Source: a virus
Taxonomy: Duplodnaviria > Caudoviricetes
Virus record (IMG/VR): IMGVR_UViG_3300044643_001654
Coordinates: 1 to 25,822 of that record
Strand: one strand, 5' to 3'
Length of the DNA: 25,822 nucleotides
The first letter of the stretch is position 1; every line of letters starts with the position of its first letter. Of this stretch, positions 2,683 through 23,267 are shown in pieces. The translations under genes and the position numbers were made by a program. The notes below the pieces were generated by a model. It saw only the letters and a list, made by a program, of their open reading frames with translations, was not told the DNA's origin and ran no database searches.

Positions 2683-5600
2683 ATGACAGACATCCAAATC
2701 TGCAACCTCGCCCTCGCCCGACTCGGTGATGCCCGTATCACCGCGCTCACGGACGCGACCGCACAGGCTCAGTATTGTTCTCTTTTTTACTCGCAGACTT
2801 TAGAGGAACTCCAGACGGAGTTCGATTGGCAGTTCTGCCGCAAACTTGCATCACTCACCGCCGATGCCACGGCTCCGGCCTTTGGCTACGCCCGCCGGTT
2901 CGCCGTTCCCTCCGACTTCCTGCGTCTCATCCGCCTCAACGGAATCGATGAGGATGAGAATTTCTCCAAATGGGAGATCGTAGACGGATTCATCCACACC
3001 GATCTCGCCGCTCCCGCCCAGATCGAATACATCGCCTCTGTCACCACCGCCGCGAAGTTCCCTGCGGTCTTTGTCGAAATCCTTTCCGCGAAGCTGGCCG
3101 CGAACCTCGCGATGCCGCTCACCGGCTCAAAAGAGCTTTTCTCTCAAATGGCCGAGGTTTTCTCGGCCAACATGCAGCGCCCGGTGGTCAAGTCGCTCAT
3201 CCTTGCAACCGCCAAGGACCGCCCATCCTCCACCCTCACTGAGGACGAACTGTGCCGCCAAGCCATCTTGCGCGTCGGCACTGCCGAGCAGTTCGGCCCC
3301 TCCTCGCAGGCGATGCTGCTTGCCAAGTCACTCTACCCGCAGGTGCGCGATGCGCTCCTCCTCGCTGGTTCGTGGACATGGGCGATGAAGTCCACCACGG
3401 TCATTGAGACGCTCCCGCGCCCAGAATACAAGTGGGCTTACCGCTACACGATTCCCGCAGACTGTCTGCGCGTCTTCCGGGTCAACGACTACGACTACTC
3501 AACCGGCGACTCGTCGTGGGAGGTGTCGGGCAACTTTGTTCTCACCAATGCCGACTCTGGATCTCCCGCATGGGTCGTGGACCGTGGTTATGAAGTCGGC
3601 AATGCGGTTTCCAACAACGGCGCGGTCTACCGATGCGTGGTTGCCGGCACGACTAAGCAACCAGGCGTGACATCTGGATGGACGACCGACTGGGATATCT
3701 GGCTCGGCACGGCGATTACGCTGGAATATGTCCGCAAGGTCACCGATGTCACCCTCTTCGATTCCCTCTTCATCGACCTGCTCACGGTCTCCCTCGCCGC
3801 CAAGCTCGCCGTCCCGCTGACCGGCGATGCCAACAAGGCCGCACTCCTCGCCAAGGAAACCGAAATCCTCGGCAAAAACCCCGCCATGCGCCGGGACTCC
3901 ACCGAGCGCAAGGGCCGCATCAAGCCTGCATGGCAGTCCTCCAAACTCGTCTCCTCTCGCAACGGCGGCGATGGCATTGATGGCTCGCAAGCCACTGCGG
4001 GCGGACCAGCAGGCGGCGTCAGCTACCCCTCGCTCCTCGTCACCGTAGGAACGGTCTCCAACCTCCCCACTGGCGCTACTCCCACCGTCACCAATACCGG
4101 CACAAACGACACCGCCGTTCTCAATTTCGGTCTGCCACAAGGCCCAGCCGGAACGGTTCAAGTCGGAACGACCACGACCGGCGCCGAAGGGACAAACGCA
4201 GCAGTCGCCGCCACAGGGACTCCAGAGAACCGGATTCTTTCATTCACCATCCCTCGCGGTAACACTGGCAATACCGGACCGCAGGGGCCAGCCGGAACGG
4301 TTCAAGTCGGAACGACCACGACCGGCAACCCCGGAACCAACGCATCGGTTGCCAATACCGGAACCAGCGGAGCCGCTGTTCTTAATTTCACAATCCCTCG
4401 CGGCAATGTTGGTGCGACCGGTCCAGCAAATAGTCTTTCCATTGGCTCGGTATCAACCGGCGCAGCAGGCTCGGCAGCGGAAGCCACGATAACCGGGAGC
4501 GCCCCAAGCCAAACACTCAATCTGGTGATCCCTAAAGGCGACAAGGGGGATGCCGCTACCGTGGCCGTCGGTAGCACAACCACAGGATTGCCGGGGACGA
4601 TCGCTTCCGTAGCAAATTCTGGGACATCCGCCGCAGCCGTTTTGCAGTTTACGATCCCGCAGGGAGTGAAGGGCGACACCGGTGAACAAGGCCAGACTGG
4701 CCCGGCAGGACCGGCAGGACCGCAGGGACCGCAGGGACCGCAGGGACCGCAGGGACCGCAAGGACCGCAAGGGGTGGCAGGCGGCTTGCCGCTTTCCGAA
4801 AGCAGCTACATCATCGCCAAACCCGGCGACGACCTTGCAGCTAAATATACCGCAGCAAAAGCCCTGACTCCCAACGGTGCGGCAAAATCTGCCACAAACC
4901 GCGCCCACCTTATCATTTTCCCCGGTCGCTACACACTTACCGCCGAGCTGGCGATTGACGCCGAGTTTGTCGATGTGATCGGGCTGGGGGCGCAGACGCG
5001 AAATCCTGCTGTGCTCATCGCTGGCAACACCTTAAATGTCAGCGCCAACGATGTGCGCGTGAGCGGCCTTTCTGTGGGCGCTCAGTCGTTCAAAATCACA
5101 GGCGACAAACCCTTGCAGGTTTTTGAGAACTGCGCCGGGGGCGCTTCCAGCTTCGGCGGCGGCGCTCTAATTAGCACCGCAAGCGGGACATTTACAGACT
5201 GCTCCGGGGGAGTCGATAGCTTCGGCGGCGTAGGCGTGGCCAGCGGGATTTTTGCAAATTGCAGGCTCACGACTGGCTCGTTTCCTACAATATATATCCC
5301 AGGCAAAATGAGGTCTTGCTTGGATGCGGACTATAATGTCTTCGATGCGGATGGGATATACGATCCAGACGCCAGCTCTTTTTTCACCACAGCATCCGTT
5401 ACGGACAATACAGCCAAGCTCCAATTACACGCCTTTGTGCTTGGCGTGAAACAACTCGGCCTTTGGAATGACATGGTGTGCTGGCCTCTCCGCAGCTCGC
5501 AGAACGCAGGCACAGGCTCGACCGCTTACTCGCTCGGTGGGCTGGGGACATACAACGGCACGCTCATCAATGGGCCGACTTGGGGGGCGGATGGAGTGAG

Positions 5601-6138
5601 TTTTGGAGGAAATACGCAAAGTATTCAATACAGTCCTCAATTTTCCGTAGATTTTACAAAACGTGGTTTTTCCGTGCATGCAGTTTGGAGTGCGCTCGGG
5701 GTCAGCGTTACAAGCCTTGAAGGAGATTTTCTTTTATTGGGGCAAATAGGGATTAGCACTTTGCAGAATATAATCACAACCAACGTAGGAGGAGGCACAA
5801 CGTGGATGCCGGAATCTAAAAACTACAATGGGAATCGGTATTTCCATTTTGCAAATGTCCCGACATCAGGAAACGTAGGATATGGGTGGAACGCTGACAC
5901 GCTAACATTGCAAACAAATGGGGTCAACATTGTTACATCGCCGCAGATAGCATTTACCCCTGCGAATGGAAATTATACGCTCTCCACAATAGGCCGAAAT
6001 AATTCCACGACCTCCGCAACTTCTCGGGTTAGCTATCTAATGGCATTCCAGCCCAACATTGGAATGACCGCGCAAAAAATGCAGGACATTTACACTCTTG
6101 CAAAAAACACTCTCGGCCAAGGACTCGGACTACCATGA
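2683..6138 (+). CDS. tail adaptor (tail tubular protein A/gp11-like), two tandem copies, fused to a repeat/collagen fibre and C-terminal globular domains
   Basis: [10 protein letters not shown]...W.F...P.D.LR...F...L...LAA.LA.PLTG occurs twice (aa ~1-184 and ~185-426). Then five VGTTTTG...L.FTIP.G repeats, Gly-X-Y triplets and a beta-rich C-terminus. Confidence 0.8.
4144..4326 (+). repeat. exact 39-bp direct repeat (4144-4182 and 4288-4326)
   Basis: CCAGCCGGAACGGTTCAAGTCGGAACGACCACGACCGGC twice, 144 bp apart and in frame. Confidence 0.9.
4699..4770 (+). repeat. 9-bp tandem repeat encoding collagen-like (GPA)2(GPQ)6
   Basis: GGACCGCAG/GGACCGCAA/GGACCGGCA-type units read directly. Confidence 0.9.
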
Positions 6139-9355: not shown

Positions 9356-12300
9356 ATGCCGAAGTTCGATTTCTATCCCTCATTCAATGCCGGTGAAGTC
9401 TCGCCCTTCATCGACGCCCGGACGAGCTTGGAGAAATACCGCAGCGCCTGCCGCACGCTGGAGAACTTCCAAATCCTGCCCTACGGCGGCGTCATCCGCC
9501 GACCCGGCACGGAGTTTCGCGGCACGACAAAAAACCCCAACCTCGGCGAAGTCCGCCTCATCGGGTTCAACTTCTCGACTACCACCCGCTTCATCATCGA
9601 AATGGGTGTGGGATACATGCGTTTCTGGAGCGGGGTAACCGGTGTGCCTGTAACCGTGGCCCCACCTGCCGCATGGGAGACTGGCAGCATTTACTTGATC
9701 GGCAACTATGTAACGAGCAGTGGCACGACCTACTACTGCACAAGCGCCCACACCTCCGACGCATTTGCGAGCGATCTCGCCGCAGGCCGATGGGTGGCCC
9801 AGACGATCCTTGAGGTTCCCACCCCCTACACGGGCATGCACCTGCGCGAGATCCAGTTTTCCCAGATCAACGACATCATGTACTTCGCGCACGCGAGCTA
9901 CCCGCCCTACAAGCTCTCGCGACTTGCCGATAACAACTGGACCTTTGAGATCATTGATTGGGACTACCCTCCTCTCCAAGACCGCAACGACACCGATGGG
10001 GTGATCAATGTGACGCAAGGGTCATCAGCGATTCCTCGGTGGGTTGCCGGGACGACATACGCAGCAGGCGAATATGTTCAACCTCCAGCATGGACCCAAA
10101 ATACGTCTTATGTCGTAGGAGACATCGTCGAAAATGCTTCTGTGGCCTACAAAGCCACAACAAGCCACACCTCCCCGGCATCGTTTGTAGCGACAAACTG
10201 GACGGCCCAAGCCGCAAGCGGGCTATTTCGCTACAAAACGCTTGTCGCTCATAAAGCAGGGACAAGGTTCGGGACTGATGCAAATGATCTTAAGTTCAGT
10301 TCGCTACCTCTCCCACTTAACCGCATGGGTCGCCATGTCATCAGCGCCCCCGCCAACACATTCAGCTCGGTTTTGGTAGGCCAAAAAATGGAACTCAAAT
10401 GGCCTACCTCCTACACTGGCTTCGGATCAAGCGGAGTTTCGGTCATCGGACAAAGTGCAGAGATATCTGTCGATATAACCCAAGACACCTCAAGCAGATT
10501 GAGTGAAATCGAAGGCGAGTGGGACTTGATCACAAGCGGAAAATGGAATGCAACAATTCAAATCCTGCGAATAGACAGGTCTAAAACGGGCGTTGTGGTA
10601 GCCACGGCCACGCGCAGCGGAAGCACGGTCTCGGTCTACCATCCTAACCACGGGTGGAGTGATGGTGATGCCATCAGCGTTGGGTCTGATCCGGGAATCA
10701 CTGCCACGCCATACTACACACGCGAAGCCAACATCGCGGTGACAGGCACGCATACCTACACCTACACAACACCCGACGCCACCAACACGGGAACCATCGG
10801 CATTTCCCCAGTCAATCTGACCAAAGCTGAGGTGGTGGCCGAGTTCACCCGCGACACGAACTTAGCTGGAGATGCCAACATCATCTATGCTGGAACTCAG
10901 ACAAGGCAGGCATCGATTATGATTCGGGTCATCAACTGGAGTGCCAGCACGAATACCCCAGCAATACCAGTCGCACGCATCCAACCACGCAAATCCGAAT
11001 CTGGTGGATTCGCCACCATTCTACAGGTCTACAGCGGTTCGTCGGCACTCATTCGCGTGGATTCATATCTTGGCACAAATAGGCATCACTTGCAGGCCAA
11101 TACAAAACTCTGGTCGCTCCCGGCTTTTTTCTCTGGGAACTATCCGCGCACGGTCGCGCTCCACGAACAACGCATCTTTTGGTCTGGCACATCTCGCGAG
11201 CCGGTCACCCTATGGGGAAGCGAAATCGATAATTTCGAGAACTTCAAGATTGGCGCAAATGCAAGCGACTCAGTGAAGATCACCTTGGCGGCGTCCGAGG
11301 GCAATCGAATCAACTGGCTATATTCTCAACAAAATTCGCTTCTCGTTGGAACAAGCGGCGACGAGTGGACCGTCAGCGCAGCCGATTCTGCGTCCACCCT
11401 TTCGGCAACCAACCTTGAGGCCAAGCGGCAATCAGCCTACGGCGGGAAATACCTTCGCGCCGTCATCGTCAACGATGTCCTGCTTTTTGTTCAGCGCAAC
11501 GGGCGCAAACTCCGTGAACTCGTCTACGAACTCAACAAGGACGGATGGGTCGCGCCGGATTTGACCCTTCTTGCCGAACACATCACCAACGGAGAGATCA
11601 TGGAGCTTGCATACCAGCAGCAACCCGATGCCGTGTTGTGGTGCGTACGCGGCGATGGCACGCTCATTGGCATGACCTATGAGCGCGACCAGAAGGTTGT
11701 CGGCTGGCATCGCCACACCATCGCCGACAATGCCGAGGTTGAGTCCGTGGCGACCATCTACGGTAACGGCACGGAGGACGAAGTCTGGATGGTCGTCAAG
11801 CGCACCGTCTCCGGGCAGGACTACCGCACCATCGAGCGGTTCCCGCTCCTCTGGCGCAAATACCTCGATGACCAGACCGCCAACTCATGGCGTTACCTCG
11901 ATGGATGGTCCGCCTTTGCCTCCGGCGCAGCAGGCCGCTCAATCTCCGGCCTCGACCGCTTCAATGGCAAGACGGTCACCGTCATGCAGGAGGGGCAAGC
12001 TCCCATCACCCGCACGGTCGCCAGCGGAGCAATCACCGTTCCTGCCGCAGCCGCAGGCTATGTCGGCCTGCCCTACACCTCGACGCTCACACCCATGAAG
12101 CTCGATATGGACCTTGAAGACGGTTCCTCCCAAGGCCGCAAGAAGCGCATCCACAAAATCATCGCCCGCCTCTACAAGAGCCGGGGAGGGGAGGTCCGCA
12201 CCAACAACGGCGATTGGTATGCCCTCGCCGACACGCTCTCCACCGGCGACCAGAAAATGATTCTCGCCGGTGCGTTTGGAATCGACGCAGATGTCACCTT

Positions 12301-12373
12301 GAGGCAAACTGCACCTTATCCAATGGCCGTCATCGCCCTTCAACCTGTGTGGGATACTTTCGGAAATGAGTGA
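9356..12373 (+). CDS. tail nozzle (tail tubular protein B/gp12-like) with inserted domains
   Basis: SFNAGEVSP....R, PYGGVIRRPGT, YPRTV..HEQR, FVQRNGRKLRE, DLT.LAEHI, V.GWHRH and VGLPYTS motifs. Confidence 0.88.
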   Translation: MPKFDFYPSFNAGEVSPFIDARTSLEKYRSACRTLENFQILPYGGVIRRPGTEFRGTTKNPNLGEVRLIGFNFSTTTRFIIEMGVGYMRFWSGVTGVPVTVAPPAAWETGSIYLIGNYVTSSGTTYYCTSAHTSDAFASDLAAGRWVAQTILEVPTPYTGMHLREIQFSQINDIMYFAHASYPPYKLSRLADNNWTFEIIDWDYPPLQDRNDTDGVINVTQGSSAIPRWVAGTTYAAGEYVQPPAWTQNTSYVVGDIVENASVAYKATTSHTSPASFVATNWTAQAASGLFRYKTLVAHKAGTRFGTDANDLKFSSLPLPLNRMGRHVISAPANTFSSVLVGQKMELKWPTSYTGFGSSGVSVIGQSAEISVDITQDTSSRLSEIEGEWDLITSGKWNATIQILRIDRSKTGVVVATATRSGSTVSVYHPNHGWSDGDAISVGSDPGITATPYYTREANIAVTGTHTYTYTTPDATNTGTIGISPVNLTKAEVVAEFTRDTNLAGDANIIYAGTQTRQASIMIRVINWSASTNTPAIPVARIQPRKSESGGFATILQVYSGSSALIRVDSYLGTNRHHLQANTKLWSLPAFFSGNYPRTVALHEQRIFWSGTSREPVTLWGSEIDNFENFKIGANASDSVKITLAASEGNRINWLYSQQNSLLVGTSGDEWTVSAADSASTLSATNLEAKRQSAYGGKYLRAVIVNDVLLFVQRNGRKLRELVYELNKDGWVAPDLTLLAEHITNGEIMELAYQQQPDAVLWCVRGDGTLIGMTYERDQKVVGWHRHTIADNAEVESVATIYGNGTEDEVWMVVKRTVSGQDYRTIERFPLLWRKYLDDQTANSWRYLDGWSAFASGAAGRSISGLDRFNGKTVTVMQEGQAPITRTVASGAITVPAAAAGYVGLPYTSTLTPMKLDMDLEDGSSQGRKKRIHKIIARLYKSRGGEVRTNNGDWYALADTLSTGDQKMILAGAFGIDADVTLRQTAPYPMAVIALQPVWDTFGNE

Positions 12374-13787: not shown

Positions 13788-15866
13788 ATGCCAGCCATCC
13801 GACTCGTTGATATCCCAAACGCAGGCCCACAAGCCCTCGGCCCCAGCAATGTGGGCATCTCCGCGCCATCCGTGCCGCGCTTTGCGGTGGACCCACAAGC
13901 CGCGAAGCTCACCGGAGCCGCCATGGTGGATTCCTCCATCGTAACCCGTGGAGCCAAGTCGATGCTCGACCAAACGCTGGAACTCGATGCCTTTTCTCAA
14001 GAAGCCAAAGCCGCTGCAAAATTTGGCGACTCCATACAAGGTATTGGAAATGTCGCTTTTCAGTGGGGTCAAAAATTTGCAGAAGCAAAGGATTACGCAG
14101 ATATCCAGCGTGGGGAGACGATTCTCGCGGTCGCCTCACAAAAACAGAAAGCCGACCAAGCAACTCTCCCAATGGAAAAGTGGGGCGAATCTCTGGCGCG
14201 GAACCAAGAGGAAACCAAAAAGGCGCTTTCAGAAATTCAATTCAGCAACAACGCCGCTGCAAAATTCAACCCGTATTTCGAGAGTTGGTCAGTAAAATCC
14301 GAGGCGTCGATGAATGCGGAATCCCGCATTAAGCAACTGGAACTTGCCAAGACCGACATCAAGGCCAACGCCCTCCGACTCGCCGCCGAGGGCAATTTTG
14401 AAGCCTCTCTTTCCGCTTTCAAGGGTGGGGTGGACAAAGGCGTTTTTACCCAAGAGGACTTCGATAAATTTGGAGCCGACATCCGTGACAACGAAATCCG
14501 TGCCACCGAGGCCATGCAGACTGACCGGATCACCGCTGATATGATGACGGACTGGACGGTCGCCAAGCAGCACCTCACCGAATATGTCAAGACCGCCGGG
14601 GACGCAAAGGACAATGCCCGCATTGATGGCGAATACGGACAGATGCCGATGAGTAAAGTCCGCCGGTTGATGGCACAAGTCGATCAGCAAGGACGGATCA
14701 GCGAGGCGAACAACTACAACATTCTCGCCCAAGCCATCGATTCCAACACCCCGATCCGCGATGCCAACGGGAACGAAATCCTCATCACCGACAAGGACAA
14801 ACTTGAATCAGCACTGGCGTCTTACAAAGTCACCGGCACAGAGTCCAAGAAACGGTTGGAGCGGTTGATCAGCGATGAGGTGAAATATGATGCCAAGAAA
14901 ATCGCCGAAGTGAATGCGCGGTTGGCAACCTACGACCCGGCGACTGACAATGACCTCAGCGAATACGCGACCTTGCAGAACGAAATCGCCGCCAATACAC
15001 CCAAACAGCTTCGCCCGCTTCTCAATGACCGGCTTGCCCAATCGGTCAAAAAATTCAACGCCGATGGGACGCTCAAATCACCAACCGAAAAATGGCAAGG
15101 TGACATAATTAACGGAGTCTGGAATCTTGGAAAATCGGGACTCCTCGGCGATCCCGGAACGGAAAAAACATCCTCCGGCCTTTATGGAGAAAAGATCATC
15201 GACCTGCCAAAACACAATGCCTACTGGGTAAATGTGCTATCTATTCAAAATGGGTTGCGCGATTGGTTTGCTAAACCGGAGAACAAAGACAAAACCGAGG
15301 CTGACGCCATCCAATACCGCGACCAACTTATTGAGCCAAGGCTAAAAGGTAAAGCCCTTGAGTTGTTCAAACAGAAGTCGCCGCCCTCGTTTCTGCCAAG
15401 CTCTGGATGGCAAACACGCATGATGGATCGAGTGGATGCCCCAGCCGCGCCTCCATCTCCAACGCTTGAGCGTGAACAAAAAATGCGAGAAAAGGCTCAG
15501 TCCACCAAGGCCGAAGGTAAGGTGACCCACTACAACTTCCCTGGCGATCCGTATTCCGACTCCAATTCCCGCAACCGCATCGGCGCGTGGAACAACACCC
15601 TCGACGAAAATTCCCTCGCCATCTCGCCCGACATCGAGCGCAAATTCAAAGCCGCCGGGATCGGTAAGGGCGACCCTGTGGAACTCACGCTCGCCGATGG
15701 GTCCACCGTGATCCGCAACTGGGACGACCGCACGATGCAGGACGAGCAGGCTATCAAAAAATTTGGCAAGCCCCTCACCGGACGCTTCGACTTCCACAGC
15801 CCCGGCGGCAAACAGAAGAACGATGGCATGGCTGTCGTCTCATTCCGCAAAGCCACCAACGCCTAA
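13788..15866 (+). CDS. internal virion protein (gp15-like) with C-terminal putative double-psi beta-barrel (RlpA/3D-like) lytic domain
   Basis: Helical body. After a Pro-rich linker: GKVTHY...SLAISPD...GDPVEL...WDDRT...GRFDFH. Confidence 0.65.
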   Translation: MPAIRLVDIPNAGPQALGPSNVGISAPSVPRFAVDPQAAKLTGAAMVDSSIVTRGAKSMLDQTLELDAFSQEAKAAAKFGDSIQGIGNVAFQWGQKFAEAKDYADIQRGETILAVASQKQKADQATLPMEKWGESLARNQEETKKALSEIQFSNNAAAKFNPYFESWSVKSEASMNAESRIKQLELAKTDIKANALRLAAEGNFEASLSAFKGGVDKGVFTQEDFDKFGADIRDNEIRATEAMQTDRITADMMTDWTVAKQHLTEYVKTAGDAKDNARIDGEYGQMPMSKVRRLMAQVDQQGRISEANNYNILAQAIDSNTPIRDANGNEILITDKDKLESALASYKVTGTESKKRLERLISDEVKYDAKKIAEVNARLATYDPATDNDLSEYATLQNEIAANTPKQLRPLLNDRLAQSVKKFNADGTLKSPTEKWQGDIINGVWNLGKSGLLGDPGTEKTSSGLYGEKIIDLPKHNAYWVNVLSIQNGLRDWFAKPENKDKTEADAIQYRDQLIEPRLKGKALELFKQKSPPSFLPSSGWQTRMMDRVDAPAAPPSPTLEREQKMREKAQSTKAEGKVTHYNFPGDPYSDSNSRNRIGAWNNTLDENSLAISPDIERKFKAAGIGKGDPVELTLADGSTVIRNWDDRTMQDEQAIKKFGKPLTGRFDFHSPGGKQKNDGMAVVSFRKATNA

Positions 15867-15872
15867 CTTTCC

Positions 15873-18800
15873 ATGACTGATCTCATCGACGACGCAACAG
15901 CAGATTTATACCTCACAGAAATAGACAAGGTTACTGGTGATGACCGTCTGAAAATGGCGAATGCTTTAGAAAAATACGCCGATAGCCTTGCTGAAAAAAG
16001 ACGCCAACAGACCGACGAACACTTTTCCAAACTCTTCACTGACGAAGCCTATTTCGAGCAAGAGAAGGCGGCTAACACTGCCGTGCAGGAATCCATCGAC
16101 CCCGACCAAACGGCAAAGAGCGCAGCCATTGGCGCATGGCTGGAGCATCACAACGGCAGGCCCATCGACCCCATGTCCTACCAAGTCGAGCGCGATGCCT
16201 TTGCGATGGCAAACTACGGGAAGAAAAACCTCGATGACAATCAACTCTTCGATTTCATCCGTGGCGAATACAATACTCAGAAAAAGAAAACCGAGGCCAT
16301 CAACGACCTCCAAATGCAGGTCGCCGCAAAAGCACTCTCTGACGCGCACCTCGACAGCAATCGTCCATTCTTTGACGGGATTACCAATGAATTCAACCAG
16401 TGGAAAGCGAAGTATCCGGAACTGGTAGACGGCAAGAATGACGCCGCCTTCCTCTCCCAAGGCTACAAACTCTACTACGATGTATTTAACGACATCGAAT
16501 CCGTGCGTGGGAAAGCATCCAAGGCGCTTTCCACGCTCACGGCCTACACCCAAGGCAACGCCACCGACGAGGACATGCAAAGCCTCGCCAACGACTTCGT
16601 CGGCGCTCCACCCGAAGACCGCCAGAAAATCTACAAATATGTGACCCTCGCCGCGCAGGCCGGTCAGATCGACCGCGCCGGGATCGAGCAGTTTGCCATT
16701 AACATGGGGCAAGCCTTCACCCGTGGGTTCGATTTCGTTCCGCAGGGAACGCTCCAAATGCAAGAGGCAGGCGTGAACAACTGGCTGGAGTCCATCCGCA
16801 ACGGAACGCAAATCTGGGTTCCCGCCGATGGCGATCTTACCAAGGCTGTAGTCGGCAACGCTCCCGCCGGAGTCGAGTCCGATGCGTGGCGGCAGGCCAC
16901 CGTGCCGGAGGCCGAGACACTCATCCAGAGTGGCCAGAATGTGCGCGAGTCCTTCAAGGTCGTGCGCGAACTCCGCAATGTCGCCAAGACCGGCGTCGAT
17001 CCGATCCGCCCGGTGATGGAAAAAGGATCAGTCATGGGCGCGGTGGAGGGCGGAGCCTATGGGGTCGCCGGAAGCATCGGATTCCTCGGCGCGACCGCCA
17101 TCAACCCATTTCTCGGTGTCGCAGCCTACCAAGCCAACGAATACGACCGAATCCGCCTTGAGAATCCCGACATGGACATCCGAGCCGCGCAGGGTCTCGC
17201 CCTTGTCGAAGGCACATGGCAGGCCGCGCTCGACCGGGTGCAACTCGCCACCCTGTCCGGCAAGCTCCCGGTGCTTGGCCGGTTCCTCGGCAACATTGAA
17301 AACAACGGCATCCGCCGCACACTCAAGGTCGGAGCATCGGTCGCCGAGCAGTTCGGCCAAGAACTCGCGCAGGACACCGGCACGATTGTCATCGACAACA
17401 TCGCCGCCGCGCTCCGCGAGGATATGCCGGACAAGGATTTTGCCGCCGAGATGGCGAAATACGGGGAGCAGATTCCCGAAACTCTCGCCGCCTCGGTCAT
17501 GTTCGGCCTCGTCGGCGGAGGATTCGCCACCGCCGCTGACCTCGGGGTCACCGAGCAGCAGATGAAAATTGTCGGCATCAACGACAAGAAGATCGCCCGC
17601 ATCAAGCAAGCCACCTCCCCGGAGGAGGCGGATGCGCTCATCCAATCGGCCCTCGAAAGCCGAACCTCCGAGGACATCGAAGCCGGAAAGACCTACGCCC
17701 GCCAAGTCTTCAACGAAGCGCAGAACCCCTCGCCCGAATCTCCAAGGATTAGCCTGGTTGCCGGGCAGGACGGCACCGACGAATACCTCGTCACCGCGCC
17801 GGACGGAAGCGAGATGCTCCGCACCAAAAGCCAGCAGGCTGCTATGGAAGCCGTCACCCAGCACGGACACGCGCAACTTTTGAACAGGCAGTTTGAGGCG
17901 CTATACGAACCCGAAGAACTCCGGCAAATGATCAGCGACCTGTCCAATCAATGGACATCGCAGGCTTCCAAAAACACGCTCGTCATGGAATCCGAAGGCA
18001 TGAATGCCCAGCAAGAGCTGGAGCAACTCCAAGCCGCAGGCAACGCCTCGCAGATTCAAGAACTCCACAACCGGATCGCGAATTCCCCGATGAAGGACAC
18101 GCCTTATGAGCAGATCAACATCCTCGGCAAAGCCAGCGTGGACGATGTCGCGGAGATGGTTTTTCAGCCGCTCATCAAAATCAATCCCAACACCCGCCCG
18201 GAAAACCTGCGCGAGGAAATCCACCACATCGGCGTCAAGGTCGCGATCAAGAACGGCAGCGTCACACTCGACACCTTGCGCGGGTGGCTCGACGCTACCG
18301 AAAAAGCCCTTCCGGGAACCTTCCAGAACCTTGTCAGAGATTCGGAAGGCGACATCGTCGAATCGCTCGCTCAAGTGCAAGCCGCCTACGAGAACGGCAA
18401 AATCAACGCCGACGAGGAAACCAAGCTCCCGCCTTCGTTCATTGGTTACATCAAAAACATGATGCGGACTTTGGCCGAGGTCTTGCGTCGAGCAGTCGCC
18501 CTGCGCGGAGCCTTCAAGGACGGCGCTCTCCCGGCTGAATACGAGACCTTCCTCGCCGACTCGGTTGGCCTCAACCAGCAGGCGCGTGTGGACACCGCCC
18601 GCGAGCGGGCAGGCGGCGAACTTACTCAAGGGCTTTTCAATTACTCGATTGGTCAACGAGTTTTGACTGATACTGTTCCATTCAAGGGATGGTTCGGAGA
18701 TTGGAAAGTCGATCCAACAACGGCATCCAAGGTGGTCGATTCCGATGGCAAGCCGATGGTGGTTTACCACGGAACGCAAAGGCCGGATCGCGTAGGAGAC

Positions 18801-21800
18801 CGTTTCCGTAAATCCCGCGCCACTTCCGGGCCGATGGCTTTTTTCACAAACGACCCGGCCATTGCCTCGTCTTACTCCACGAACAAACGAGACACCTCTG
18901 CGGAGATGCCATCGGACTACGCCGAGTGGTTTAAATACAAGGGCAAAGGGATGCGCTCGCCGGTTGCTATCGACCGCGCATGGTGGAACCTTTCTCCCGA
19001 GGAGCGGGCTGCGGTAAACGAACGCATCTATACGATTGGCTATTCCGATTGGGATGCTGGCGAAGGCCCGATTGTCGGAAATTCGCAGAGCATCATTCCC
19101 CGCGACAGCATCGACTACGAATTGCGCCAAGCCCGTGGGAACGGTCTCCGGGCCTTGGTCGAGATGTGGCTTTCCAGCGGTTCTCTTTTCAACCAAGAGG
19201 AAAAGTTTTTGGAAGTCCTGCAAGCGGCAGGCGTTAAAGGGGCAACGCTCGACGATCCCAACGCCGCCCGCTCGGCAGTCTACCCGGTCTATCTTTCGAT
19301 CAAAAACCCGCTCGATACAGCAAGCATCCCGGGCGATGTCGTCTCAGCCTTGGAACAAGCAGGCAAGCGCAAGCGGGCCAAGCAATCCGCAGGTAAAAAC
19401 CCCGACGGATGGGATAAAAACACCATCAGCGGGAACGATTGGATGGCCGCGCTGAAAGAGGACATGGCGAAAGGAACGACCCATGCGTGGACGCGCATCC
19501 CCGATTGGGTCACAGAAACTCTGTCGTCCCTCGGATACGATGGCATCAAGGATACCGGCGGGAAAAATGGCGGAGTGCAGCACCAAGTATGGATTCCATT
19601 CAACGAAACGCAGGTCAAATCGGCCACCGGAAACCGTGGCACCTTCGACCCGACCTCGGCGAACATCAACTATTCGATTGGGAAAATTGAAGCGCCGTCA
19701 AAAGATTATTTTTCCAAACCAGACAAAGACTTTGTTCTTGGGCAGCTTTCTCCTCTCGTCCTTGAGGCTACTGGAAAATCTGACAAGCCGGTTGTTTTAA
19801 AAGTTTCTGTGGTGGGAAAAAACAAATCCGCTCACGGAGAGATTCCTGATTCGGAATCTGCAAAAATCTTACAAGAAGCCATATCTTCACCGGATTTGCT
19901 GATACTGGATCAACCAGCAAAAAGACCTAATAATTGGCATTTTGTAAGATTTGATAAATCAAACCAAGCCGTTTTGGTTGAAATGGAGGACACTAAAGAC
20001 ACCCATCAAATTGTTGGATGGATGGCAATGCGAGATAACTCCATCGCTCAAAAAATTGAGAGAGCCAAGAAGGAGGGCGGCCGCGTCCTCATAACAGGGA
20101 ATGATCCCCGGTCAGATGGCCTTTCTGATCGTCTCCTTGGCCCAAGGTTAAAAAAAGCATTGGATTCCGTAGCCGTCAAGTTTGAACCAAAAAACTACTC
20201 CATCGCGAGCCAGTCCGAGATCGACCGGGTAAACCGCGCCCTCGGCGGCATGAACCGAGGCCCGGACGAGCGGCTCAAAGTCTACCAGCGGGCCAAGCAG
20301 AAATTCTCCAAGGTCATGGCTTGGAATTCCGACGAACTCGCCGCGATGGCCGACACCGGCAGCGACGACTCCCAAATCCGCCGCACACAAATCCTTCAAG
20401 GTCTCGGCGAACTAGACGGCATCATGTCTGTCCTCCCGCCCGAAGTGCGCGGCAGGGTAGGGGGCTACACCAAGCTCGCCGGGATCGCCCCGCACGATGT
20501 CTTCAAGGACGGGGTGAAGATCTCCGAGGTCTCCGGCATGAACGGCGCAATTATCTCGGCATGGATGCGCGAAGGCCAAAACATCGGGCAGGCAGGCAAG
20601 CAGGTTTCCCTGCCACTAGGCTACACAGCAACCGAGAACCTCTCCACCAAGCGGGCCGACAAGGCCATCGCCGACTTCTTCCGCGACCGCATCAAGAAGA
20701 TCGACACCGAACTCGAAAAAGTGCTAGTGCGCGAATACACCGAGGCCATCGCCAAGGCCGTCAAGCAATCCCGCCCGAAGGCCGGTGACAACAATGTCCG
20801 CAAATCCACGCTGGGACCAGAAAAGCAAAAACTCGCCGATATGGTTCAACGCGCCACCATGATGGACGAGGATGCTGTGTCGGAACGGATGCTCCAACTG
20901 GAGCAAACCATGGCTATATCCGAGAACTCCGCCGACATGGTGGAGGAGTGGGGAATTCTCAACCAATTTGGCGACCTTAAAAACCGGAACTCCGAAACGC
21001 TCGCGCAAGCCTACGAGTGGTTCAAAGACCAACTCAAACTTGGGCGCGAAGCGTGGCGCATCAAAGAGGAAGCCCGCATCGCCGAGAACCGGGAACGAGC
21101 CAAGAAGACCGTGGAGTGGGTAGGGGAGGCAACCCGATCTGATGATTTTAAAAACAAGACATTCATGGATCGCGTATCCGATTGGGCAAACCACGCGCTA
21201 CTTGATCACGCCAGTTTTGAGCAGTTTGTCACAGCCCTTTTCCCGCCAGATGTAGCCGCAGATTTCTCAACTCGACTCCGCAAAGCAGATGTCGCTGCTC
21301 AAAAAGCCGAGATCGACCAACGCGAAGGAATTCTCAATGCGCTTCGCGAAGGAGCTAAAAATGCAGGCATCAGCGCAGGGAGGGCTTTGGAGATGCTTAA
21401 AACCGAGGCTCCAAACTCCGTGCGATATCTTCAAGGTAGAAAAGTTAAGAATACCGAATTCACCATTGAGCAAGCAGAGAAAGTCGTGCGTGGCGAAATT
21501 GATCGTAGCGATTTGACTGATGCCGATATCAAAAACCTTTCTGATGAACTTGCTGCATTGCCAGCAGACACTCGCAAAGAAAATATCACGCTCAAGCAGG
21601 TCGTTTACCCCGGAAAAGAAGTCCGCTTGCCGATGACCCGTGGGAAAGCGATCCAGCTTCTCCTTTCGTGGAACCAACCAGATGTCCAAGACAAGATGCG
21701 TCGGGAAGGGTGGAATGACGATAGCATCATTGACCTTCGCAAACTGACCTCCGATCCAGTTTCTGAATCAATGATCGCCTACGCACAAGAACTCTACGGG

Positions 21801-23267
21801 AAGGGCGCAAGCATTGTGAATCCGGTCTACTCACGGATGTTTGGCATGAACATGCCGCAAGTGAAAAACTACGCGCCGACTCGTTTTAAACATTCTGAGG
21901 ATGTTCCGGATATTGGCCTTGATGGCGTGCCTGTATCCAAGGGAAGCACTCCCAGTTTTGCAAAGTCGCGTGTGTCCCACTCATCTGAAATCGCAGCGGA
22001 AGACGCTTTAAGCGTCATGCAGCAGCACATTCTGACCCAAGCGCATTGGGTCAATTTCGCCGAATTGGCGAGGGAGTTTCGCTCGCTGCTCAATAATAAA
22101 GATGTCCGTGATGCAATCAAAAAAAAGCATGGCGACAATGTTTTGAAACTTGCAGGTCTATGGGCGGACCAACTGGAGCAAAGGGGAGGCAACCAATCCC
22201 GTGGAGCCGCATGGGCAAATGCAATACTTGGTTCTGTCATAGGAGGGCAGTCCGTGGCATCACTCGGTTTCAATCTTAAAACCTTGGCCATGCAGTTGGA
22301 CAACGCCGTGCGCTTTGGGCTTGCGCTCGACATGAAGCAAGTTGTGACTGCGATGCAATCGCCAGATCAACTGATCCAAGACATCAAAACAGTTTTTGAA
22401 AGCGATGCGCTACAAACACGCCTGCGCGGTGGCGCAACTGCGGAATCAAGGTTTCTGTTTGAAAAATACGGCGGGCGACCCGGTAAGGCTGCAAAAATCG
22501 CCGAAACATCCATGTCTCTTATTAATTGGATGGATACCGCGACAACCAGTTTCTCGGCTGCGATTGTTTACCGCGCAAATTTGAAAGAGGCGCTTGCTGC
22601 TGGAATGCCGGAACCTCTCGCTCGCGAAACCGCGCTCGATGCAGCCGCTGCTGCCATTTACCGATTTGCCCAGCCGGTTTCCTTTGGGCAAAAAAGCAAT
22701 GTTGAGAACAGCGGGAATATTTACACAAAAGCATTTTTTCTTTTTATGTCCGATCCGAGACTCAAGACCTCGATTATGGCTGATGCGATTCGTGGACTCG
22801 TCACAGGGCGTGGAGATAAATGGACGCATGTTCGCCGAATTATCGCCGTGGAACTCATGGCGGCACTCTCACATGTAGTAGCATCGTCCTACCGCGATGC
22901 ATTCACGGACGACGATGATGAAGATATCTGGACACTCGGCGGTTGGGTGAGGGCGCTCGCGCTTGCTCCATTGCAAGGGTATTTGTTTTTTGGAACGATG
23001 TTTGATTCAGTCCTCTCTCAACTTTCCGGGGCTGGTTGGTTTGCGCCAACGCAGAACCCGTTGATTAGCGTTGGGCAGTCCGGCCTAAGGGCTTTGAAAA
23101 ACGCTGATGATATTTTGGCATTTGATGATCCCGATGCTCTGCTGAAAGAGTGGGCCGCTATCGCTCGCACATTAGCGGTCGCCCCGCCAATGGCCGCGCC
23201 CGCCGTCCTTCTCAACATGGTCAAACCAGTCGTTGGCCTTTACCAGAACGCCACAACCGAAGAGTGA
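15873..23267 (+). CDS. giant internal virion / large polyvalent protein, 2464 aa, with ART-PolyVal-like and PBECR-like modules
   Basis: Last ejection-gene position. FKGWFGDW..SKVVDSDGKPMVVYHGT...VYLSIKNP...GYDGI...QVKSATGNRGTFD signature, an EEIHH zincin-like motif and a hydrophobic helical C-terminus. Confidence 0.8.
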   Translation: MTDLIDDATADLYLTEIDKVTGDDRLKMANALEKYADSLAEKRRQQTDEHFSKLFTDEAYFEQEKAANTAVQESIDPDQTAKSAAIGAWLEHHNGRPIDPMSYQVERDAFAMANYGKKNLDDNQLFDFIRGEYNTQKKKTEAINDLQMQVAAKALSDAHLDSNRPFFDGITNEFNQWKAKYPELVDGKNDAAFLSQGYKLYYDVFNDIESVRGKASKALSTLTAYTQGNATDEDMQSLANDFVGAPPEDRQKIYKYVTLAAQAGQIDRAGIEQFAINMGQAFTRGFDFVPQGTLQMQEAGVNNWLESIRNGTQIWVPADGDLTKAVVGNAPAGVESDAWRQATVPEAETLIQSGQNVRESFKVVRELRNVAKTGVDPIRPVMEKGSVMGAVEGGAYGVAGSIGFLGATAINPFLGVAAYQANEYDRIRLENPDMDIRAAQGLALVEGTWQAALDRVQLATLSGKLPVLGRFLGNIENNGIRRTLKVGASVAEQFGQELAQDTGTIVIDNIAAALREDMPDKDFAAEMAKYGEQIPETLAASVMFGLVGGGFATAADLGVTEQQMKIVGINDKKIARIKQATSPEEADALIQSALESRTSEDIEAGKTYARQVFNEAQNPSPESPRISLVAGQDGTDEYLVTAPDGSEMLRTKSQQAAMEAVTQHGHAQLLNRQFEALYEPEELRQMISDLSNQWTSQASKNTLVMESEGMNAQQELEQLQAAGNASQIQELHNRIANSPMKDTPYEQINILGKASVDDVAEMVFQPLIKINPNTRPENLREEIHHIGVKVAIKNGSVTLDTLRGWLDATEKALPGTFQNLVRDSEGDIVESLAQVQAAYENGKINADEETKLPPSFIGYIKNMMRTLAEVLRRAVALRGAFKDGALPAEYETFLADSVGLNQQARVDTARERAGGELTQGLFNYSIGQRVLTDTVPFKGWFGDWKVDPTTASKVVDSDGKPMVVYHGTQRPDRVGDRFRKSRATSGPMAFFTNDPAIASSYSTNKRDTSAEMPSDYAEWFKYKGKGMRSPVAIDRAWWNLSPEERAAVNERIYTIGYSDWDAGEGPIVGNSQSIIPRDSIDYELRQARGNGLRALVEMWLSSGSLFNQEEKFLEVLQAAGVKGATLDDPNAARSAVYPVYLSIKNPLDTASIPGDVVSALEQAGKRKRAKQSAGKNPDGWDKNTISGNDWMAALKEDMAKGTTHAWTRIPDWVTETLSSLGYDGIKDTGGKNGGVQHQVWIPFNETQVKSATGNRGTFDPTSANINYSIGKIEAPSKDYFSKPDKDFVLGQLSPLVLEATGKSDKPVVLKVSVVGKNKSAHGEIPDSESAKILQEAISSPDLLILDQPAKRPNNWHFVRFDKSNQAVLVEMEDTKDTHQIVGWMAMRDNSIAQKIERAKKEGGRVLITGNDPRSDGLSDRLLGPRLKKALDSVAVKFEPKNYSIASQSEIDRVNRALGGMNRGPDERLKVYQRAKQKFSKVMAWNSDELAAMADTGSDDSQIRRTQILQGLGELDGIMSVLPPEVRGRVGGYTKLAGIAPHDVFKDGVKISEVSGMNGAIISAWMREGQNIGQAGKQVSLPLGYTATENLSTKRADKAIADFFRDRIKKIDTELEKVLVREYTEAIAKAVKQSRPKAGDNNVRKSTLGPEKQKLADMVQRATMMDEDAVSERMLQLEQTMAISENSADMVEEWGILNQFGDLKNRNSETLAQAYEWFKDQLKLGREAWRIKEEARIAENRERAKKTVEWVGEATRSDDFKNKTFMDRVSDWANHALLDHASFEQFVTALFPPDVAADFSTRLRKADVAAQKAEIDQREGILNALREGAKNAGISAGRALEMLKTEAPNSVRYLQGRKVKNTEFTIEQAEKVVRGEIDRSDLTDADIKNLSDELAALPADTRKENITLKQVVYPGKEVRLPMTRGKAIQLLLSWNQPDVQDKMRREGWNDDSIIDLRKLTSDPVSESMIAYAQELYGKGASIVNPVYSRMFGMNMPQVKNYAPTRFKHSEDVPDIGLDGVPVSKGSTPSFAKSRVSHSSEIAAEDALSVMQQHILTQAHWVNFAELAREFRSLLNNKDVRDAIKKKHGDNVLKLAGLWADQLEQRGGNQSRGAAWANAILGSVIGGQSVASLGFNLKTLAMQLDNAVRFGLALDMKQVVTAMQSPDQLIQDIKTVFESDALQTRLRGGATAESRFLFEKYGGRPGKAAKIAETSMSLINWMDTATTSFSAAIVYRANLKEALAAGMPEPLARETALDAAAAAIYRFAQPVSFGQKSNVENSGNIYTKAFFLFMSDPRLKTSIMADAIRGLVTGRGDKWTHVRRIIAVELMAALSHVVASSYRDAFTDDDDEDIWTLGGWVRALALAPLQGYLFFGTMFDSVLSQLSGAGWFAPTQNPLISVGQSGLRALKNADDILAFDDPDALLKEWAAIARTLAVAPPMAAPAVLLNMVKPVVGLYQNATTEE

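Follow-up and report, generated by a model that had tools for sequence, protein, structure and literature searches.

A four-residue peptide, NYSI (the tag), marks the exact boundaries of exchangeable cassettes in a 2464-amino-acid (aa) polyvalent protein. The protein is encoded on a 25,822-nucleotide (nt) stretch of viral DNA (IMG/VR record IMGVR_UViG_3300044643_001654; the whole stretch is referred to below as the window). Comparison with relatives showed a variable slot in a fixed frame, filled by cassettes in many orders, with crossovers sitting at the tag. Codon use at the junctions showed selection acting on the tag as a peptide. We propose, at about even confidence, that a zincin-like domain directly before the slot reads the tag as a release site and that the tag doubles as an annealing seam, cleavage being the predicted part. 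The exact peptide-tagged boundaries are what appears to be new here. The available text of Iyer et al. (2017; PMC5512222) already describes such proteins and their mosaic make-up and suggests release by a peptidase, and the first-pass annotation, made from the sequence of the window, went too far in presenting this as its best candidate for an undescribed system.

The protein and its cassettes

Features of the protein are listed by window position, strand and description.

15873..23267, + strand: 2464-aa polyvalent protein (open reading frame (ORF) call); by gene order, the last of three putative internal-virion/ejection genes
15873..17972, + strand: N-terminal frame, aa 1-700; no Pfam family
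17973..18617, + strand: zincin-like domain, aa 701-915, candidate tag reader (AlphaFold model, weak fold matches)
18213..18227, + strand: E781-E782-x-x-H785, where the canonical site would read HExxH; E or D at 782 in 135/135 relatives
18360..18362, + strand: E830, third-ligand position; invariant in 135/135 relatives
18639..18650, + strand: tag 1 (NYSI), slot start (repeat and relatives)
18639..19667, + strand: cassette 1, 343 aa, ART-PolyVal ADP-ribosyltransferase-like with a large insert (PF18760)
19668..19679, + strand: tag 2 (NYSI), separates the cassettes (repeat and junction set)
19668..20192, + strand: cassette 2, 175 aa, LPD13, AT-rich, possibly a BECR-fold RNase (PF18825)
20193..20204, + strand: tag 3 (NYSI), slot end and first residues of the C-terminal frame (82/82 close proteins)
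20193..23267, + strand: C-terminal frame, 1024 aa (weak structural-protein match)

NYSI was found at aa 923, 1266 and 1441 (nt 18639, 19668 and 20193) and was the sole 4-mer present three times in the protein. When the protein was shuffled 500 times, a 4-mer with three copies turned up in 59% of the shuffles, so the triple alone is within chance, and its significance comes from the relatives. A repeat finder run on the ORF did not report the tags as a repeat family. The first two junctions were alike at 14 of 16 nt (18637-18652 against 19666-19681). GC content at third codon positions (GC3) was 0.74 on the upstream flank of the slot, 0.64 and 0.38 in modules 1 and 2, and 0.80 on the downstream flank. 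The repeat, the junction likeness, the module sizes of 343 and 175 aa and the shift of codon style at junctions 2 and 3 were thus as the annotation had described them. GC3 also dropped to ~0.5 near aa 1750, remote from any tag; this tag-free part of the C-terminal frame (~21100-23267) went from ~0.75 to ~0.5.

Cassette 1 matched ART-PolyVal (PF18760) at E 1.8e-20 and 74.6 bits (cut-off 31.2), in agreement with its earlier description as ART-like. For the ART-PolyVal catalytic site, a YHGT-type motif was present in 99/112; the last strand was mostly H-x-V-W-I-P, with no conserved acid. Cassette 2 matched LPD13 (PF18825; E 4e-21), and a PDB sequence search with it gave no match. Its ESM-Atlas neighbours, PBECR2/3 and MuF_C, scored 0.89-0.92, which is weak and below the tool's recognition mark; these neighbours suggest that the cassette is possibly a BECR-fold RNase. 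The earlier label 'RNase-like' finds support in these neighbours only, and Pfam assigned LPD13 and no named PBECR family. As both domains scored above the Pfam cut-off, multiple disparate conflict domains lie in one polypeptide, as in the polyvalent class. For the C-terminal frame there was a weak match (22%, E 3e-6) to a Tenacibaculum phage Gundel_1 structural protein. Hydrophobic segments in the protein were marginal (two at 1.5), and membrane anchoring is not claimed.

Slot contents in relatives

Two flank searches gave 49 viral loci; among these and the window together, 38 had both flanks after three duplicates were dropped. Slots in these loci were 502-1188 aa long and were cut at the tag into 44 classes. 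Tags were counted in 82 full-length close proteins, query included, with 229-1175 aa between the conserved flanks. The tag occurred 350 times in 69,338 slot residues, a few of these probably by chance, against 6 times in 155,649 residues outside. The last tag coincided with the first residues of the C-terminal frame in every close protein, and lay within 25 aa of that place in 61/82 more distant ones. The first tag was at -1 to +4 in 70/82 and at +28 in 12/82, and the +28-type loci carried the variant VFSR at the expected place.

Proteins and loci were pooled into 152 distinct slots holding 401 modules (at least 45 aa), which formed 53 clusters in 103 arrangements. At least two left neighbours were found for 26 of the 30 common module classes, and the ART-PolyVal class, seen at 23 places, had four left and eight right neighbours. 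Cassettes in relatives included ART-PolyVal, Kinase-PolyVal, LPD3, LPD13, PBECR5, GNAT, ParB-like and DUF7178. Both window cassettes recurred at 95-100% identity in carriers whose N-terminal part was just 57-80% identical, and the LPD13 cassette was 98-100% identical in two phages with differing frames. Of 82 more distant proteins in which both frame ends could be placed, 7 had an empty slot, with a strict single tag in three and a variant (FST, HSI, LSL or LSM) in four. Because these relatives keep one tag or a variant, the ancestral state looks to have been a single tag at a domain boundary. The annotation's plug-in slot is thereby borne out: relatives hold differing domains between tags, and some distant ones hold none. 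A cassette-less joint was not seen in the assembled contigs of four lake runs, which drop rare variants.

The tag divides these proteins into exact domains without recourse to homology. Of 41 representatives scanned from the slot classes of the 38 loci, 23 had no Pfam match at the thresholds used, and PADLOC gave just two weak matches on 22 modules. The modules are candidate virion-delivered counter-defence or takeover proteins.

Several smaller features of the slot were noted. Mini-cassettes of 12-54 aa with a tag on either side (L008, L019, L033, L035, L046) are probably deletion remnants or spacers; a 29-aa one was present in 10/38 loci. Long arrays were seen in the relatives P0168 (4086 aa) and P0211 (3739 aa), with about nine tags each in slots of 1500-1900 aa. 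One cassette (L035:747-1706), which had no Pfam match, weakly matched PsyrT in PADLOC (E 2.8e-5).

Conservation of the tag as a peptide

The tag consensus was [NSD]-[YF]-S-[IV]-[GAS]. Each position was freed in turn. Ser was present in 210 of 211 N[YF]xI[GAS] contexts, with Thr or Cys never found; Y/F was present in 210/210 and I/V in 216/216. A small residue followed the tag in 210/228 contexts (G 141, A 55, S 14). The tag Ser was encoded by TCN in 77 and AGY in 51 of 128 distinct junctions, and by AGY in 79 and TCN in 43 of 122 internal junctions. Codons for N, Y and I roughly tracked the gene background in the 128 distinct junctions.

The retention of Ser under both TCN and AGY codons means that there is no fixed recombinase site. 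Movement of cassettes at a DNA site by an integron-like site-specific recombinase would suit the precise junctions and the tyrosine integrase encoded in the window. Synonymous variation was at background and no fixed DNA core was found beyond the peptide codons, so this explanation is largely refuted and retains next to no probability. As it is the peptide that is conserved, the DNA microhomology is a by-product. Of the annotation's in-frame microhomology swap site, the swap site stood, with crossovers at the tag; the conserved DNA word did not.

DNA switch points

Switch points were mapped on 132 junctions from 33 loci, after five near-duplicates and one edge case were dropped. Where junctions shared the right side, identity began at median 0, and 79 of 91 combinations fell within -6..+5 nt of the tag start; where they shared the left side, identity ended at median +15 nt. 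Pair selection for these values was tag-anchored, which confines change points to about -30..+42, overstates precision and leaves far crossovers invisible; the result is therefore concentration at the tag, not exclusivity. The assembled contigs of four lake runs gave two direct cases. One contig carried both cassettes on a different upstream frame and diverged at 18636; in the second, a different cassette end was joined to the downstream frame at 20192. Breakpoints map to NYSI, as the annotation had expected.

The selection rule aside, two further findings count against a strict rule of exchange at the tag. About five kinds of tag-less fusion were tolerated in the 152-slot set, and the frame also recombined away from the tag and is thus mosaic. 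One relative (P0017) has both cassettes and 80% of the N-terminal part in common with the window, and aligns at only 22% over the C-terminal frame; this divergence likewise makes the frame itself mosaic.

Junctions unrelated on both sides shared about six exact nt (mode), and exact matches of at least 12 nt occurred in ~10% of unrelated junction pairs. RecT-like annealing proteins were found in two complete relatives (G001, just under the cut-off, and G004) and a Sak4-type protein in a third (G003); the Sak4 family was absent from 4/5 complete relatives. Single-strand annealing proteins tolerate short, diverged homology, according to the parts of two reports that were available (PMC5499656, PMC8093625). 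We infer that annealing proteins make the swaps and that selection retains those at the tag.

The proposed sequence of events begins with co-infecting phages and prophages, which would swap cassettes through their own single-strand annealing proteins, with the tag providing ~12-15 nt of similar DNA for annealing. Exchanges at this point would preserve reading frame and whole domains, and hence survive. The polyvalent protein would be packaged and then ejected, after which the zincin-like domain is predicted to recognise the tag and cut. Freed ART, kinase, GNAT, PBECR and other effectors of unknown kind would reach different host targets before phage gene expression. Each lineage would have its own tag, and tag and reader would co-evolve. 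The slot also illustrates how a signal at the protein level can steer recombination towards in-frame, whole-domain swaps.

An improbable alternative is that the tag is a recombination seam and nothing else, the boundary being duplicated by short-homology annealing, its copies kept alike by exchange, and the peptide serving as a neutral linker. Crossovers at the tag, the RecT/Sak4 genes of complete relatives, the survival of tag-less fusions and the extra common DNA that flanks many junctions (the ~10% class above) would all be expected of such a seam. They must be set against third positions that vary like background, a Ser codon box that switches without Thr/Cys intermediates, conservative replacements, and the usual sharing of only ~6 exact nt between unrelated junctions.

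Tags in distant relatives and in unrelated frames

A profile search with the upstream domain gave 339 relatives, and the best 150 of the 339 were examined. In 98 long distant proteins, [YF]S[ILVM] occurred 3.7 times per 1000 aa in the slot and 0.4-0.6 times outside, i.e. six- to nine-fold denser. The flavour of the tag was specific to the protein (2.0 against 1.28 matches; 0/1000 shuffles).

The ART cassette was also searched for, and the best 120 of 360 matches gave 82 proteins with unrelated frames, 74 of them with both ends located. In these 74, the word after the ART cassette recurred at the protein's own N-junction (score 13.5 against 8.2; 0/2000 permutations), and the own word was in the top 5% in 29. 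Copy numbers within single proteins were, for example, nine for FMPEG, seven for RLRRK and five for YSPDV. HExxH was carried by 52/74. To judge by these words, polyvalent proteins with unrelated frames each put a word of their own on the ART cassette that they have in common. Such frame specificity suggests that the frame also encodes the reader.

The zincin-like domain as candidate reader

The domain directly before the slot, which the annotation had passed over, is the candidate protease. An initial AlphaFold model built on 21 sequences had low confidence (predicted local distance difference test (pLDDT) 60) and gave no matches. A better model of aa 701-915 (pLDDT 82) had a sheet, a helix with E781-E782-x-x-H785 and a helix with E830. 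Zincin topology (three-stranded sheet, active-site helix, Glu helix) fits this model, with matches over 103-150 residues at Z 3.4-4.9. Fold matches spanning the domain were Pro-Pro endopeptidases (PPEP) and lethal-factor-type zincin folds, those over the whole domain at no more than Z 4.0-4.9. The better model had no match in the PDB by Foldseek at E<=0.001, the domain had none in Pfam, and PDB sequence searches gave nothing useful. A BFVD structure search returned uncultured-phage proteins only, several of them polyvalent.

The catalytic-base acid (782, E or D) and the third-ligand Glu (830) were invariant in all 135 relatives. The site itself took the forms EExxH (42), EExxE (40), EDxxE (13), RDxxQ (12), HExxD (12), RExxQ (11), HExxH (2) and other (3). 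Neither HExxH nor HExxxH was found anywhere in the 82 close proteins. The R-[ED]-x-x-Q form was seen in 23/135 relatives, among them P0173, P0189, P0191, P0208, P0213, P0222 and L016, apparently in several lineages (no tree was made). With both acids kept, this form is possibly a functional state and not decay.

Cleavage of the tag by this domain has a number of findings to contend with. The domain-spanning fold matches had Z <5, below the tool's clear level, and two of them are to the zincin-like domain of lethal factor that is not known to be catalytic. Among isolate phages, no match to the candidate reader was found. Canonical HExxH was present in just 2/135 relatives, the window itself having EExxH, and the R-[ED]-x-x-Q sites of 23/135 are unable to bind zinc in the usual manner. 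Tag numbers were equal beside EExxH (57 proteins, mean 4.14) and RDxxQ (24 proteins, mean 4.17). The own word fell below the top 20% in 32 of the 74 other-frame proteins. Although the N4 virion RNA polymerase (vRNAP) contains a zincin HExxH, the available portions of the reports describe it as unprocessed (PMC13434306, PMC13492108). A complex prediction for the domain with the tag-2 peptide scored 0.00 and gave no evidence either way.

A canonical zinc protease acting in cis was considered and is weakened by the non-canonical sites and by the full tag sets beside RDxxQ. The domain would either cut by non-standard chemistry or only bind.

Binding without cutting is the basis of a second explanation, in which the tag is an uncut signal that docks as a beta-strand, either on the frame (e.g. 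within the cleft of an inactive zincin) or on the machinery of ejection. It would pack, order or unfold the cassettes one by one through the tail, and the modules would act tethered. Full tag sets beside non-canonical and R-[ED]-x-x-Q sites agree with docking, as do the single tag or variant retained at the domain boundary by empty-slot relatives, a model of the tag as a strand (E222-227, at low confidence) and fold matches that include non-catalytic zincin-like domains used in translocation. The unprocessed N4 vRNAP, 'beads on a string' in the text available, is a further parallel. Invariance of the catalytic-base acid speaks against docking. So do the small residue after the tag (210/228), which resembles a protease subsite preference, and the frame-specific tags, mostly alongside intact HExxH in other frames. 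We consider docking somewhat unlikely.

If the tag were cut by a protease of the host, or by another one that the phage encodes, tags beside dead-looking sites would be accounted for, and PHROG weakly labels the scaffold-position gene of the window as 'protease' (E 6e-5). The tags differ widely among frames, which fits a frame-encoded reader instead. No further protease family was found among the window genes or among 21 proteins scanned from two complete relatives, a scan short of every gene. Cutting by a protease of either origin is very improbable.

The release-site proposal can be widened to a general tag-and-reader code, under which polyvalent proteins would be the polyproteins of bacterial viruses. 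Each frame would have a zincin-derived protease and its own tag, and cassettes would be re-tagged on transfer. The protease of the present family would have lost its zinc-binding histidines in favour of carboxylate-rich or Arg/Gln sites and would cut with another metal or none. In this general form the proposal is unlikely. For the polyvalent class as a whole, the tag makes the 2017 processing conjecture directly testable, as it pinpoints where cuts would fall, nominates an enzyme and names residues for mutation.

Relation to known systems

In polymorphic toxins (CDI, Rhs, MuF), a conserved junction peptide before a swappable C-terminal toxin is both swap point and processing site. Those proteins have a single terminal toxin and an immunity gene, whereas several internal cassettes lie in series here, and no immunity gene was seen adjoining the polyvalent ORF. 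In T7, the three internal-virion genes gp14-gp15-gp16 follow the tail tube genes and are not known to have an effector slot. The window resembles T7 in this gene position and in the number of internal-virion genes; PHROG and Pfam scans of the window proteins gave no sequence match to gp16 of T7.

The protein is of the phage-type polyvalent kind, for which the available text of Iyer et al. (2017; PMC5512222) describes a class with mosaic orthologues (a Helicobacter example) and proposes that a zincin-like peptidase frees the domains after injection. As there, a large virion-module protein mixes ART-PolyVal, kinase, GNAT, PBECR, ParB and LPD domains, and domain content varies among orthologues (here 103 arrangements in 152 slots). 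No junction motif is named in the text available of that paper (PMC5512222), whereas the present family has exact peptide-tagged boundaries and a non-canonical peptidase site. A junction tag of this sort was not described in the literature searched, which comprised titles and abstract starts, with most subscription papers outside the search.

The N4 vRNAP (gp50) is likewise very large and ejected, has a zincin HExxH domain and is built of subdomains joined by flexible links; its content is a fixed RNA polymerase, and no tag array is described in the accessible parts of the reports (PMC13434306, PMC13492108). It is packaged uncut, according to the part of Iyer et al. (2017; PMC5512222) that was available. 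The phi24B protein gp47, a 2811-aa polyvalent protein, was found in virions, and an ejection role has been proposed for it. It differs in having its own frame (LPD5, LPD1, LPD38, MuF-C), and the available text mentions no cassette slot or tag (bioRxiv 10.64898/2026.04.10.717836).

Genome setting and host

The window is a fragment of an uncultured freshwater phage, and the virus record is 66% complete. Its genes run from the scaffold-position gene through capsid, two tail tube proteins and three internal-virion genes to the lysis genes and, last, the integrase. Neighbours of the polyvalent ORF were assigned by PHROG/Pfam matches as capsid, two tail tube proteins and an internal virion protein (phrog_418). 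Complete relatives of 38-39.5 kb have the same gene order, plus terminase and portal, and in these as in the window the polyvalent ORF lies in the virion morphogenesis module. Because of this position and the analogy to phi24B gp47, the product is likely carried in the virion and enters the host by ejection at infection.

The host is probably a member of Verrucomicrobiota, since a prophage relative (62-66% identity in the domain upstream of the slot) sits among housekeeping genes on a 432-kb Terrimicrobiaceae contig. The same Terrimicrobiaceae assembly (G002) contained three family members (contigs C12, C6 and C45), of which the two small contigs could be misbinned. A further match lay on a 36-kb contig that binning had assigned to Methylococcus, perhaps wrongly.

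At its C-terminal end (~15530-15866), the 692-aa internal-virion protein appears to resemble a double-psi barrel peptidoglycan enzyme; Pfam gave no such match for it. Tail tube protein A (phrog_394; 2683-6138) is fused to a collagen-containing fibre and has 1151 aa, against ~200 aa in distant relatives. Tail tube protein B (9356-12373) has an insertion with CBM_5_12 repeats and is 1005 aa long, whereas its distant relatives have 760-770 aa.

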